Of a stretch of 24,393 nt of DNA, positions 13,055 through 15,104 are shown in pieces (within the stretch, counting starts at the first letter, position 1; every line of letters starts with the position of its first letter). Location: IMG/VR virus record IMGVR_UViG_2740892232_000011; one strand, 5' to 3'. A model generated the notes under the pieces. The model was given only the letters and a program-made list of their open reading frames with translations, did no database searches and was not told the origin of the DNA. The translations under genes and the position numbers were made by a program. This stretch comes from a virus. Taxonomy: Duplodnaviria; Heunggongvirae; Uroviricota; Caudoviricetes.

Positions 13055-13085
13055 GTGCCCGAGGCAGATAGCCTCAAGCACCCGC
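13055..13085. repeat. Left copy of the ~30-bp direct repeat flanking the AT-rich cassette
   Basis: GTGCCCGAGGCAGATAGCCTCAAGCACCCGC; overlaps a 9-bp inverted repeat CTATCTGCC...GGCAGATAG. Similarity to the right copy continues with an indel to about 13135. Confidence 0.8.
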
Positions 13086-13321
13086 CGTGATTCTACAAAA
13101 ACATTACCCACCTTTCCAGCAATTCACAACAACTCCATGCAAATAGTAAGTAGAATAATAAGTTATTAGTATTAGCAATTTACTTAGTTTCTAATTTGTG
13201 CCAATGATTTTCATTTTTGCATGAAAAATACCTTAACATTTTATATTTACTTACTATTTGTAAGCCCCATCAGTTCTTTCTGATGGCGGCTGGTATTTCA
13301 GTTCCAGATATAGTATATGCT

Positions 13322-14350
13322 TTACGCCTTAATAGGGTTAATCACATTTCCGCTATCCGTACCATAGTATTTTTTTGTAGTCATGCCTTGTTTATAATAA
13401 TCATTTAACAGTTTGAGAAAGTTTCTTCCTTGCCTCTCATCTTCTATGACTAATTTACCATGCTCATTGGTCTTAAACTCTTCGTTCTGAAACATTTTTA
13501 GCACATCATTCATAGCTTGAACATCATTCTTTTCCAGAGCCGTATGGTTACCTTTCTCAGCGATATGAGTGAGAATTTTTCTCAGTGATGGCTTATGAAG
13601 AATAGCTTGTTCAATAACATCTAAACCTTCAATAAGATCAAGTTCTTTAATTGTATTTAATGTTTTTTGTGCAGCTTCTGTAAACTCAACCTCCAAGCCT
13701 ACAATAGCCTCAAAACTTTTCTTATGAAATACATAAAATTGATCTTTTATATAAATACAATCGATTTTGTCATCAAAATTGACTGCGCTGCCATCAAATG
13801 ATCTTAACTCTTTATCTGTTTTATCAAACAAAGCGAATACGCGCTGAGTCATATTTTGTGGTTCATTTGTTGTGACTTTCCCCCTGCTGATTTTTCGGAA
13901 AGAATAAGTGACGTCAGCCCCCTTTTGGACTTTAATACAATAGGCCCACAAATCATTCTGAACCTCAGCAAGAGAGGTAAGTACAACTGGTTTATCATTC
14001 TTTATATCGTTATTAATAACTTTTGAAAACGATATCGCGTTATTCATAGCATAGGCATAAATCTTATTATCAATATCATCATCAATAACAGTATACTTTT
14101 TCATCACAATATCATCTTTCGAAGCATGAGAAATAATCTGGTTTGATAAAGTATACTTAAAAAATTTAGCAATATCTGGAGCGATTGGAGCTTTTATGAT
14201 TTTAAAATCGAATTTATCAACAACTCTTGCGGTTCTACTCATACCCGCTTTAAGATGTCTAGTAATGAAATACAACGATATTTTCGCCGCATCATCATCC
14301 TTAAGTTGCTCAGCATACTCTAATAATTCTTCAAGCTTTAACATTTTCAT
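13322..14350 (-). CDS. Cassette gene B: 342-aa soluble protein, candidate defence effector (possibly KwaB-like)
   Basis: ATG overlaps upstream gene stop (ATGA). AT-rich, Lys/Asp/Asn-rich composition unlike surrounding phage genes. No Walker A or obvious nuclease motif seen by eye. Kiwa assignment is by architecture and size only. Confidence 0.8.
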   Translation of the reverse strand: MKMLKLEELLEYAEQLKDDDAAKISLYFITRHLKAGMSRTARVVDKFDFKIIKAPIAPDIAKFFKYTLSNQIISHASKDDIVMKKYTVIDDDIDNKIYAYAMNNAISFSKVINNDIKNDKPVVLTSLAEVQNDLWAYCIKVQKGADVTYSFRKISRGKVTTNEPQNMTQRVFALFDKTDKELRSFDGSAVNFDDKIDCIYIKDQFYVFHKKSFEAIVGLEVEFTEAAQKTLNTIKELDLIEGLDVIEQAILHKPSLRKILTHIAEKGNHTALEKNDVQAMNDVLKMFQNEEFKTNEHGKLVIEDERQGRNFLKLLNDYYKQGMTTKKYYGTDSGNVINPIKA

Positions 14351-14961
14351 TCCTTATGGGATTCAGCATAAAAAAGTTTTGGGCCCACGTCCTCAACATC
14401 AAGAAGATCATCTTCCTCCAAATACTTTGATTTAGTCAAAACCATACCAGTGCGTTTTTTGTCGCTTTCTAAATCCAAATATGTAACTTGATATAAAGTA
14501 TAATTAATACTTATTGTAGGATTTATAAGTATCATGCTTGAATTAATATATATTAAAGCCGTTACCGTTAACAATATTGCTATAGGTATAACATTAGTTA
14601 AAGTGGATAGATCCTGAAATACAAACGGAATTATATATGTAAAAAGATAGCTTATTGATTCATTGTTTTTATTTTCAATATCTATAACTCTTACAGTTCT
14701 ACCACTAGTGGCGCATCGACGTTTTATATTTTTTAAAAAAATTGTTAATCCTACAATACCAAATAATGATAATACACCAATGACACTGACCGCGCCAAAG
14801 TATTTAAAGAAAATAGTTAATGATTCAACACTTATACCTTTCCAATTTAAATAGCTTCTATAAGTATACAATTGCACAAAACACATGATAAAGAATAGGG
14901 GAAGGTATGACACTATAAATAGCGAAACTCTAGCACCTAAATGTAGTTTATTTACTCTCAT
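14347..14961 (-). CDS. Cassette gene A: 204-aa polytopic membrane protein (about 4 TM helices) with acidic C-terminal tail (possibly KwaA-like)
   Basis: Hydrophobic segments VSLFIVSYLPLFFIMCFVQL, FGAVSVIGVLSLFGIVGLTIFL, ISYLFTYIIPFVF, VIPIAILLTVTALIYI; C-terminus LEEDDLLDVEDVGPKLFYAESHKE. Translationally coupled to gene B. Confidence 0.75.
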   Translation of the reverse strand: MRVNKLHLGARVSLFIVSYLPLFFIMCFVQLYTYRSYLNWKGISVESLTIFFKYFGAVSVIGVLSLFGIVGLTIFLKNIKRRCATSGRTVRVIDIENKNNESISYLFTYIIPFVFQDLSTLTNVIPIAILLTVTALIYINSSMILINPTISINYTLYQVTYLDLESDKKRTGMVLTKSKYLEEDDLLDVEDVGPKLFYAESHKE

Positions 14962-15072
14962 AACTACCCCACAGCCTACACGTCTAGTATTTTATGTTAT
15001 TTCGAATAATTATGCATCAGATTACCATCCTACAATTGTGCATAAAACGAGCATTTTGCTGATTTTTCTGCG

Positions 15073-15104
15073 GATGCCTGAGACAGACAACCTCAAGCAC
15101 CCGC
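15073..15104. repeat. Right copy of the direct repeat flanking the AT-rich cassette
   Basis: GATGCCTGAGACAGACAACCTCAAGCACCCGC; 25 of 29 aligned positions identical to the left copy, including an identical 14-bp core CCTCAAGCACCCGC. Confidence 0.8.

Follow-up and report, generated by a model that had tools for sequence, protein, structure and literature searches.

Does a short, AT-rich, two-gene cassette lying beside a toxin gene in a lambdoid prophage encode an anti-phage defence system, and how did it come to lie between two direct repeats? The window analysed here is the whole stretch of viral DNA, 24,393 nt in length (IMG/VR record IMGVR_UViG_2740892232_000011). The original prediction, made from its letters, proposed a horizontally exchanged defence cassette that resembled Kiwa and allowed that it might be an undescribed system instead. 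Kiwa is an anti-phage defence system described in 2018, when it was reportedly defined by Doron; publications on its mechanism and structures followed in 2025. The cassette is very probably a divergent but bona fide kwaA-kwaB (Kiwa) operon, carried as moron-like cargo of a Qin-like lambdoid prophage. It is a system already described in an ordinary context, not a new kind of system, and the modest curiosity of the locus is its likely capture of the hokD promoter.

Table 1. Features of the Kiwa cassette and its immediate flanks, ordered along the minus strand (positions in the window).
Feature	Position	Strand	Description
QueH (epoxyqueuosine reductase) prophage gene	15170..15856	-	Conserved flank; ORF and RefSeq annotation
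Upstream (QueH-side) repeat copy	15075..15115	-	41-nt direct repeat in front of kwaA
Putative kwaA 5' untranslated leader	14962..15102	-	141 nt, if transcription starts at hok +1
kwaA	14347..14961	-	204-aa ORF; Kiwa membrane protein
kwaB	13322..14350 (probable start 14344)	-	Maximal ORF 342 aa, probable 340 aa; soluble DUF4868 protein
Non-coding tail after kwaB	13097..13321	-	225 nt, AT-rich, structured; part of the E. coli cassette
Downstream (hokD-side) repeat copy	13056..13096	-	-10 box TAGAAT and first 28 nt (5' hairpin) of hokD mRNA
hokD/mok/sok type I toxin-antitoxin locus	12673..13083	-	Intact; site at which the cassette landed
hok CDS	12760-12915	-	Within the hokD/mok/sok locus
hokD terminator	12673-12690	-	Within the hokD/mok/sok locus

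Composition and gene content of the cassette

The cassette (13097-15074) is ~2.0 kb long and contains kwaA, kwaB and non-coding DNA only. Its GC content is 31.9%, compared with 48.8% in the remaining window, and this AT-rich composition indicates a foreign origin. Both genes are intact, adjacent and co-oriented, with kwaA preceding kwaB. From its first ATG, kwaB overlaps kwaA by 4 nt (ATGA); from its second ATG, at 14344, a 2-nt gap separates the two genes. The second start is more likely because it has an AAGGA Shine-Dalgarno sequence 7 nt upstream, KwaB homologues are mostly 339-340 aa long, the kwaA-kwaB spacing in a Yersinia locus (L010) is likewise 2 nt, and RefSeq places the start at this ATG. 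The genes are tightly coupled with either start, and the AT-rich, translationally coupled operon of 204-aa and 342-aa ORFs that had been predicted is therefore present as described.

Identification of the Kiwa proteins

Identification of both proteins relies on profile searches and on predicted structures. KwaA aligns over residues 1-203 with positions 2-204 of the 205 in the PADLOC profile PDLC00212 (E 1.3e-101), and 11 further KwaA models in the PADLOC scan match it as well. KwaB matches the PADLOC profile PDLC00223 over residues 3-341 (E 1.5e-159) and scores 60.1 bits against the Pfam family PF16162 (KwaB/DUF4868), above its cut-off of 26.3. In the NCBIfam equivalog families, to which both proteins align at full length, KwaA reaches 81.1 bits against NF041622 (cut-off 100) and KwaB 57.7 bits against NF041623 (cut-off 200), both below the cut-off. 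Because of these scores, RefSeq names the KwaA of a near-identical locus 'hypothetical protein' and the identical KwaB protein 'Kiwa anti-phage protein KwaB-like domain-containing protein'. KwaA is unnamed in RefSeq, and Kiwa is therefore missed by annotation-only screens. The RefSeq accessions WP_000915482 and WP_001265627, used as literature search terms, returned no paper. PADLOC also holds subtype-specific models for this protein pair.

Hydropathy analysis places clear hydrophobic segments of KwaA at about residues 6-34, 47-80 and 113-147, and its C-terminal 40 residues have a slight acidic excess (11 D/E versus 7 K/R), in agreement with the predicted membrane protein with an acidic tail; KwaB has no hydrophobic segment. 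The AF2 monomer model of KwaA (pLDDT 81.5) consists of helices at 8-33, 45-86, 104-113 and 121-140 and six strands, including those at 88-97, 155-163, 168-176, 186-193 and 196-201. The model suggests four transmembrane helices and a cytoplasmic β-barrel to which the intracellular loop and the C-terminus both contribute, which is the architecture reported for KwaA (PMC11785009). The solved Kiwa structures (PDB 9mrg, 9mrr, 9mrx, 9mtn, 9nyu and 9o0i) are those of the E. coli O55:H7 RM12579 proteins, KwaA P0DW45 and KwaB P0DW46. In Foldseek searches of the PDB, the KwaA model has 9mrx_A as its best match (TM 0.78/0.81), and KwaA chains are its only significant matches. The KwaB monomer model (pLDDT 82.8) matches six KwaB chains (E 5e-14 to 5e-11, TM 0.58-0.67, ~345 columns), among them 9mrx_D with an E-value of 5e-14 and TM of 0.62/0.66; the next match has an E-value of 0.12, which leaves KwaB chains as the only significant ones. 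The predicted KwaB fold is that of the solved protein, with an N-terminal α/β domain followed by DUF4868. Sequence and profile searches of the PDB likewise return KwaA and KwaB for the two proteins; three weaker KwaB-profile matches in the PDB are designed helical-repeat proteins. Together, the full-length PADLOC matches of both proteins, the Pfam match of KwaB and the agreement of the AF2 models with solved chains establish the suspected relationship to Kiwa and exclude the option of an undescribed system.

Proposed function and mode of action

In the characterised system, KwaA tetramers in the inner membrane and KwaB dimers assemble into a membrane supercomplex, and the DUF4868 domain of KwaB binds incoming DNA, which stalls replication and late transcription while the cell survives (PMC11785009). 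By homology, the KwaA tetramers of the present system would hold KwaB dimers at the inner membrane, and KwaB would bind incoming DNA through DUF4868, stalling replication and late transcription but leaving the cell alive. The lysogen would presumably be shielded from superinfection in this manner, and its own prophage would be spared on induction because the trigger acts at entry.

We infer a defence phenotype for this allele from its relationship to the characterised operons. That the pair are Kiwa homologues lacking a defence role, or serving another one such as a prophage-host membrane function or the exclusion of conjugative plasmids only, seems very unlikely. Such a reading can draw on the 16-22% identity to the experimentally characterised Kiwa proteins in the PDB, on the scores of both proteins below the NCBIfam equivalog thresholds, and on the variable specificity of Kiwa, of which one tested variant lacked an anti-conjugation effect (PMC11785009). 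However, both ORFs are intact and near-invariant across 156 genomes, they belong to a widespread subfamily in which the kwaA-kwaB linkage is kept at each locus examined, and sister prophages carry other defence-type cargo in the same slot. Furthermore, all five diverse Kiwa operons that were tested (ECOR8, ECOR12, ECOR49, D9 and Ralstonia) defended against phages (PMC11785009).

Distribution of the cassette

Carriage by prophages is frequent for Kiwa (PMC11785009). Of 5426 complete E. coli genomes, 156 carry the cassette at >99% identity, with an identical context in all E. coli matches listed, and it is also present in ~10 IMG/VR prophage contigs, with the same context in the copies listed. 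All copies found are prophages in bacterial assemblies or in IMG/VR. A tblastn search of 50,697 GenBank phage records found no KwaB, and the deposited phage genomes are thus without this subtype. Homologues of KwaB on plasmids are limited to two distant ones, from Vibrio (43%) and Hymenobacter (22%). Between the cassette and its close Kiwa relatives in Yersinia, Symbiopectobacterium and 'Martelella', DNA homology is confined to the two coding sequences, and these relatives have neither the repeat nor hok; the order kwaA-kwaB and the 2-nt gap are kept in Yersinia and in other loci.

The flanking repeats and the hok promoter

The toxin gene predicted beside the cassette is hokD, which directly adjoins it. 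The Rfam sok model (RF01794) matches 13083-12909 on the minus strand with 115.7 bits (gathering score 59), a mok-frame ORF of 70 aa (12759-12971) contains the 51-aa Hok, and RefSeq annotates hokD as WP_000813254.1 in a near-identical locus (L001; 97.5% identity over the hokD stretch). In thousands of E. coli records, the hokD homology breaks off at precisely 13096.

The flanking repeats form an ungapped direct pair of 41 nt with 33 identical positions and an exact 14-nt core, CCTCAAGCACCCGC; the 25/29 repeat noted in the original prediction is a part of this pair. Across 100 shuffles of 12500-15700 that preserved dinucleotides, the best-matching 41-nt direct pair averaged 26.0 matches (sd 0.8, maximum 29); none of the shuffles attained 33. 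On the minus strand the upstream copy runs GTAAAAT (containing the -10 box TAAAAT), TGCTGC and GGGTGCTTGAGGTTGTCTGTCTCAGGCA, in which a hok-type -10 box is followed by a start site and a 5'-terminal hairpin. This hairpin is the tac region of hok mRNA, a term from Gerdes-lab work. The predicted repeats thus bracket AT-rich DNA as claimed, but they are a duplicated hokD promoter and 5' leader rather than the ends of a mobile element.

The sequence down to 15075 is colinear with the hok promoter of prophages that have no cassette (see below). Promoter-like sites lie ahead of both transcription units: TTGGCG-17-TAAAAT at 15137..15109 in front of kwaA, and TGGAAA-17-TAGAAT at 13118..13090 in front of hokD. 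Since the segment from the -10 box to +28 of hok mRNA flanks the cassette at either end, kwaAB is most likely transcribed from the original hok promoter (-35 TTGGCG, -10 TAAAAT) as a transcript beginning with the hok 5' hairpin, an assignment based on the match to the promoter consensus and on the homology with hok promoters. Alignment to the 5' end of hok mRNA in the Rfam sok model and to the empty sites suggests that the first ~28 nt of the kwaA leader are hok-derived and that the rest is cassette-specific and AT-rich; structure prediction places a 12-bp 5' hairpin where this putative leader begins. A permissive Rfam scan of 13090-15200 (E up to 10) returned chance-level snoRNA and CRISPR-DR matches and no second hok/sok element, so the upstream repeat amounts to a fragment with promoter and 5' hairpin only.

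The hokD gene would retain a rebuilt promoter, with its -35 element supplied by the tail of the cassette. This tail contains a 13-nt perfect inverted repeat (13140-13152 and 13248-13260) and has a fold z of -2.7. No canonical terminator was found in it, so that read-through from kwaB into hokD is possible. The tail is not common to the Kiwa loci of other genera, in which DNA homology stops at 13329-13347.

A carrier able to move by itself would offer a different account of the repeats, as the ends or target-site duplication of a transposon, an integron-like cassette or the att sites of a recombinase. The repeats do bound the AT-rich DNA exactly, and one-copy sites without the cassette exist. 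In contrast, the interval 13097-15074 has no transposase or recombinase ORF, 41 nt at 80% identity is untypical of a target-site duplication or an att core, and each copy is unremarkable hok promoter and leader sequence. The cassette also has a single context among the E. coli and IMG/VR copies listed, and the Kiwa loci of Yersinia, Symbiopectobacterium and 'Martelella' have no repeat or hok. Neither a copy with these termini at an unrelated, non-hok site nor an excision circle joined at the 14-nt core was seen. The absence of a recombinase, the hok-derived repeats and the single context led us to reject this reading, which we regard as highly improbable.

Empty sites and the probable route of insertion

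Comparison of the hok-QueH interval across prophages provides the counterpart of the occupied site. At two empty sites (L002 and L003) QueH borders immediately on the hokD promoter. Where QueH and hokD are direct neighbours, the prophages contain a single repeat copy and no cassette, and two copies occur only in Kiwa-bearing loci, as expected of the exchangeable cargo that had been proposed. The ~2.0-kb cassette would accordingly be best pictured as having entered the hokD promoter and leader, leaving the segment from the -10 box to +28 of hok mRNA on both sides, probably by short-homology recombination between prophages. A pure duplication followed by divergence of the two copies was considered and rejected: the differences from resident hok alleles cluster in the cassette-proximal halves of the repeats, at 5 of 6-7 positions. 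The clustering is a hint, from a count too small to be decisive, that the cassette brought hok-like ends of its own.

The same five positions could be read in the opposite direction. If the occupied site were ancestral, the 'empty' QueH-hokD sites would be deletions by recombination between the repeats, which would then mark loss instead of gain. The repeat copy of the empty site combines the QueH-distal half of the upstream copy, the core and the hok-distal half of the downstream copy, a hybrid expected from a crossover in the 14-nt core. We consider deletion unlikely, given that empty QueH-hokD sites are several-fold commoner (8 entries versus 2 in a spread sample) and more diverse (~95% identity, on different prophage backbones), whereas the cassette is >99% identical everywhere, which suggests a recent spread. 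Its AT-richness sets the cassette apart as foreign DNA, and in IMG/VR the cassette-proximal repeat variants are found with Kiwa only. Insertion thus remains the preferred account of the occupied site.

A variable cargo slot beside hokD

The position of the cassette is occupied by alternative cargo in other prophages. Elsewhere, the DUF977-hokD interval harbors AbiU-like/AIPR genes, the PADLOC candidate PDC-S39, DUF5677, methylases or relBE. The original prediction of a variable prophage slot with defence-type cargo is upheld by the AbiU-like, PDC-S39 and relBE genes found at the same position. Its placement of the toxin gene where Qin has relBE needs a correction. In K-12-type Qin, relBE adjoins hokD, and homology of the window to K-12 strains stops at 12928; hokD is indeed the neighbour, but relBE does not take the place of Kiwa, as some prophages contain both, one insertion nested with the other at the hok locus.

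A larger defence system that includes the neighbours was also considered and rejected. PADLOC found no other defence genes among the eight cassette-flanking genes (DUF968, Rem, Hok, QueH, DUF977, replication protein, YdaT). Elsewhere in the window PADLOC matched only one gene, an orphan type II methyltransferase of the late region, at a distance of ~4 kb.

One tentative generalisation, which we hold to be possible and still rather doubtful, is that the lambdoid hok locus acts as a landing pad at which short-homology insertion of cargo duplicates hok regulatory sequence; for Kiwa, this would be the promoter of hokD together with a stabilising 5' hairpin. A second instance at this locus may be the relBE-flxA segment of K-12 Qin, whose entry would have duplicated 15 nt in the region of the hok start codon and Shine-Dalgarno sequence. 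If the generalisation were true, constitutive hok-type promoters would be a recurrent and previously unremarked expression route for the defence cargo of lysogens, and the expression of Kiwa might be tied to an addiction module.

The discovery value of the locus is small: Kiwa is known, the protein pair is common in E. coli and KwaB is named in RefSeq. The locus does provide a clean pair of occupied and empty sites for studying the entry of defence cargo into lambdoid prophages, with promoter capture probable. The DUF977/QueH-hokD slot merits mining, as AbiU-like, PDC-S39 and DUF5677 genes are also present there.

Comparison with known systems

Three groups of known systems are relevant to the locus. 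With the Kiwa of E. coli O55:H7 RM12579 and the five tested operons it shares the arrangement of two genes, kwaA then kwaB. Common ground further includes a KwaA of ~200 aa with four transmembrane helices and a six-stranded cytoplasmic β-barrel, here as predicted by the model, and a KwaB of ~320-340 aa with a DUF4868 domain; the predicted folds of both proteins superpose at full length on the solved O55:H7 chains. In contrast, identity to the solved proteins is just 22% for KwaA and 16% for KwaB, sequence searches align the C-terminal halves only, and the present proteins are longer by 9 (KwaA) and ~25 residues (KwaB). Having scored under the NCBIfam cut-offs, both belong to the Kiwa family and are not equivalogs of the O55:H7 proteins. 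Kiwa falls into three phylogenetic clusters (PMC11785009), and the low identity, the length differences and the sub-cut-off scores therefore suggest that this pair probably represents a different one of them. With 16-22% identity and scores below the equivalog cut-offs, its trigger or phage range may differ from those of the characterised systems, and one possibility is that this clade senses another trigger than the solved Kiwa.

With the hok/sok loci (hok/sok of plasmid R1 and the chromosomal hokD/relF of Qin), the repeat shares the -10 box, the +1 site and the 5' hairpin. Unlike a full hok/sok locus, the upstream copy comprises the first ~28 nt of the hok leader, fused to the kwaA leader, with no hok, mok or sok after it.

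The accessory slots of temperate phages used for comparison were the defence hotspots of P2 and P4 (PMC9122126) and the prophage hotspots of the E. coli pangenome (PMC9519451). Consistent with lambdoid morons and hotspots, the cassette is a compositionally foreign unit with its own promoter between conserved phage genes, and, as at known hotspots, sister prophages fill the slot with other defence-type cargo (AbiU-like, PDC-S39, relBE). Unlike the P2 and P4 loci, the slot is the DUF977/QueH-hokD interval of Qin-like and Stx-like lambdoid prophages, and unlike a typical moron, the insertion duplicated a resident promoter and brought no recognisably foreign one.

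Identification of the gene pair as Kiwa

The kwaA-kwaB pair between hokD and QueH is a genuine Kiwa system of a subtype far from the O55:H7 reference, for which solved structures are available. Both proteins match PADLOC models over their full length, KwaA with PDLC00212 (E 1.3e-101) and KwaB with PDLC00223 (E 1.5e-159), and many other PADLOC KwaA and KwaB models match more weakly. The KwaB (DUF4868) domain is recognised by Pfam with 60 bits (cut-off 26.3), and family PF28043 is precomputed on KwaA homologues. In a single-sequence search of the PDB, Kiwa proteins are the sole matches, weak ones (E about 1e-5) that cover the C-terminal halves; with profiles of 44 homologues per protein, E improves to 1e-9 and 1e-7, and the top matches are again Kiwa.

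The same alignments yield confident AlphaFold2 models (pLDDT 81.5 for KwaA, 82.8 for KwaB). In Foldseek comparisons with the PDB, KwaA chains are the only significant matches to the KwaA model (best 9mrx_A, TM 0.78/0.81, 22% identity) and solved KwaB chains the only ones to the KwaB model (E 5e-14, TM 0.62-0.67, 16% identity). Four membrane helices are present in the KwaA model, together with six strands that come from the intracellular loop and the C-terminus; this agrees with the published description of KwaA. Hydropathy analysis found no hydrophobic segment in KwaB. The original prediction had guessed at Kiwa and named profile searches and structure prediction of the 342-aa protein as checks; both were run, and the guess is borne out by the PADLOC, Pfam, PDB profile and structural matches.

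Against the NCBIfam equivalog models, KwaA (81 bits, cut-off 100) and KwaB (58 bits, cut-off 200) align over their full length and score below the cut-offs, thus indicating a genuine Kiwa system distant from the O55:H7 reference. These scores explain the RefSeq names "hypothetical protein" for KwaA (WP_001265627.1, e.g. 15348-15962 of the near-identical locus of E. coli 746) and "KwaB-like domain-containing protein" for KwaB. Screens based on protein names would therefore miss Kiwa here.

The maximal kwaB reading frame overlaps kwaA by ATGA if it begins at the first ATG. The second ATG (14344, 340 aa) is the more likely start, because an AAGGA Shine-Dalgarno sequence precedes it at a suitable distance, RefSeq uses it, most homologues have a similar length (339-340 aa), and the resulting 2-nt spacing recurs in a Yersinia locus.

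Features of the Kiwa cassette and its surroundings (window positions)
Feature	Position	Strand	Details
kwaA ORF, intact	14347-14961	minus	204 aa
kwaB ORF, intact, maximal	13322-14350	minus	342 aa
41-nt direct repeat	13056-13096 and 15075-15115		33/41 identical, exact 14-nt core
Rfam sok/hok-leader match	13083-12909	minus	115.7 bits
Position corresponding to relBE insertion point	12913-12928
13-nt inverted repeat, perfect	13140-13152 / 13248-13260		arms 95 nt apart
16-nt inverted match, perfect	12656-12671 / 14663-14678		TTGAAAATAAAAACAA / TTGTTTTTATTTTCAA
QueH, stand-alone epoxyqueuosine reductase	15170-15856
Orphan type II DNA methyltransferase	8225-9274		PADLOC PDLC03265, 1e-165
Two tandem STnc100 sRNA-family matches, three tRNA genes	7174-8175		STnc100: 165 and 136 bits
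SASA-family esterase gene	5098-6951

The flanking repeats and the probable history of insertion

Between the repeats (13097-15074) the GC content is 31.9%, compared with 48.8% elsewhere in the window. When 12500-15700 was shuffled 100 times with its dinucleotides preserved, the best direct pair of 41 nt had a mean of 26.0 matches (sd 0.8) and a maximum of 29; the observed repeat, with 33, is therefore far beyond chance. Two reading frames in an AT-rich cassette bracketed by direct repeats, as first described from the sequence, are thereby confirmed.

The repeats correspond to the hok promoter and leader. The left copy, within which the Rfam match begins, reads GTAGAAT-CACGGC-GGGTGCTTGAGGCTATCTGCCTCGGGCA on the minus strand. 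It comprises the -10 box, a spacer and nucleotides 1-28 of the hokD mRNA, which form the 5'-terminal hairpin. The right copy is GTAAAAT-TGCTGC-GGGTGCTTGAGGTTGTCTGTCTCAGGCA; ahead of it, with a 17-nt spacer, stands a -35 element (TTGGCG) in the same -35 region as is found before hok in other prophages. A transcript initiated at hok +1 (15102) is predicted to fold first into a 12-bp hairpin and to have a 141-nt leader up to the kwaA start codon. In thousands of genomes the hokD homology stops exactly at 13096, and the -10 box junction is therefore a recurrent mosaic boundary; a further locus (L007) has other upstream sequence, also joined at TTTTTGTAGAAT.

Empty sites, in which QueH lies directly beside hokD (L002, L003), account for about 8 of 60 evenly spaced rows of E. 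coli matches. They contain exactly one copy of the 41-nt segment, colinear on both sides with the two flanks in the window, and the 14-nt core is doubled only in Kiwa-bearing loci. Such sites may, less probably, have arisen by deletion; the simplest interpretation is an insertion of about 2.0 kb into the hokD promoter/leader, duplicating positions -10 to +28. After this insertion, the original hok promoter would drive kwaAB, and hokD would be driven by a hybrid promoter with its -35 (TGGAAA) within the cassette tail. Five of the 6-7 differences of the two copies from resident hok alleles lie in the cassette-proximal halves, and these variants occur in IMG/VR only together with Kiwa, which suggests that the cassette brought along hok-like ends of its own and may have entered by short-homology recombination. 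Recombination of this type, between short, diverged sequences, is catalysed by phage Rad52-like/RecET systems (PMC3945230). A RecE-like exonuclease is encoded by the Qin-like prophage of E. coli 746.

The AT-rich non-coding tail after kwaB (225 nt) folds better than shuffled sequences (z = -2.7); no canonical terminator was found in it. The 13-nt inverted repeat lies in this tail. The 16-nt inverted match pairs the T-tract of the hokD terminator with a site within kwaA and is probably a chance match in AT-rich sequence.

The host prophage and its variable cargo slot

Window positions 11197-22980 are 97.5% identical to the Qin-like lambdoid prophage of E. coli 746, integrated beside rspB/ynfC. 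Its order is DUF968 (ydfU), a small hypothetical gene, rem, hokD, kwaB, kwaA, QueH, DUF977, a replication gene, a YdaT-family gene, cro/cI-like regulators, dicB (with DicF RNA), the RecE-like exonuclease, xis and int. The late region of the window is unlike strain 746, and the best coverage of the window by any complete genome is 79% at most. The STnc100 and tRNA stretch lies downstream of the Q antiterminator region, an arrangement shared with Stx-type lambdoid phages, and is followed by the esterase gene; an orphan methyltransferase is also encoded, and stx genes were not noticed. QueH is a conserved resident of the slot in many E. coli lambdoid prophages.

The original prediction had proposed comparing the hok-QueH interval across lambdoid prophages; comparison of the DUF977-hokD interval in other E. 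coli prophages did reveal alternative cargo. The interval holds QueH alone in the empty sites L002 and L003 and QueH plus 375 bp in L004. In sister prophages, the slot equivalent to window 13097-15169 contains a split AIPR gene, the larger part of which has a PADLOC AbiU match (1.4e-17; L005, 5894-7668), a DUF4209 protein of 595 aa that matches the PADLOC candidate PDC-S39 (8e-103; L025, 5390-7177), or a DUF5677 protein with no PADLOC match (L027, 5302-6327). L006, L007, L026 and L028 have groups of small genes, methylases and IS elements there. The slot is variable, often with defence-type cargo.

The cassette had also been placed beside a toxin gene where Qin has relBE. It does adjoin hokD; relBE is no alternative to Kiwa, since the two co-occur. 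In E. coli 2900 (L024, 1558-5020) and three IMG/VR contigs (L013, L015, L017), the K-12 Qin segment relE-relB-ydfV-flxA-ydfW and an ISNCY transposase remnant have intact hokD on one side and a 5' remnant of hok on the other; Kiwa and QueH come after the remnant. Direct repeats of 15 nt, ATAGCCTGCTTCTCC, flank this 3.3-kb segment, and their sequence is that of the hok start codon and Shine-Dalgarno region. relBE and Kiwa are therefore nested insertions into one hok locus, two in number, each of them with duplicated hok sequence. K-12 Qin looks like a derivative from which the Kiwa-to-replication stretch was lost.

Distribution

Counting records that cover at least 80% of the query, 156 of 5426 complete E. 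coli genomes have the 2.2 kb cassette region, with an identity of 99.9-100%. A query extended with the hokD and QueH flanks again gave 156, so that at least some of this context accompanies every copy. The cassette is also on about ten IMG/VR prophage contigs, and hundreds of contigs encode the exact KwaA/KwaB proteins. One contig in a metagenome-assembled genome binned as Veillonella parvula (JAGZPX010000007.1) matches 7 kb of the window at 95.7% identity, encodes an identical KwaB, and is almost certainly a mis-binned E. coli prophage contig.

Yersinia thracica, Symbiopectobacterium and a genome labelled Martelella alba have relatives with 78-86% protein identity. DNA homology there does not extend beyond the two genes' coding sequences (14961 to 13329/13347), and neither hok nor sok was found near Kiwa. 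Remoter relatives are mainly from Vibrio, Aeromonas, Shewanella and other Gammaproteobacteria. A search of the GenBank phage collection found none.

Comparison with characterised Kiwa systems

In characterised Kiwa, a fence-like membrane supercomplex is built from KwaA tetramers and KwaB dimers; it is found at phage attachment sites and triggered by membrane disturbance in adsorption or DNA ejection (PMC11785009). KwaB binds DNA non-specifically via DUF4868, replication forks stall and late transcription is blocked; the infected cell survives, so that this is not abortive infection, and KwaB can be inhibited by lambda Gam (PMC11785009). All five diverse Kiwa operons tested protect against phages, with differing specificities (PMC11785009). 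For the present allele, protein families, predicted folds and operon structure are shown; by homology, its products would form the complex, bind DNA and provide defence. With its trigger at the entry step, Kiwa would spare the induction of the prophage that carries it.

No earlier description was found of a hok promoter and 5' hairpin duplicated around such a cassette, or of the nested relBE insertion with its 15-nt repeat; these are modest observations on prophage mosaicism. The Kiwa system, its mechanism and its frequent carriage by prophages are already published, the subtype has its own PADLOC models and KwaB is named in RefSeq; the result is therefore the correct identification of an already known system.
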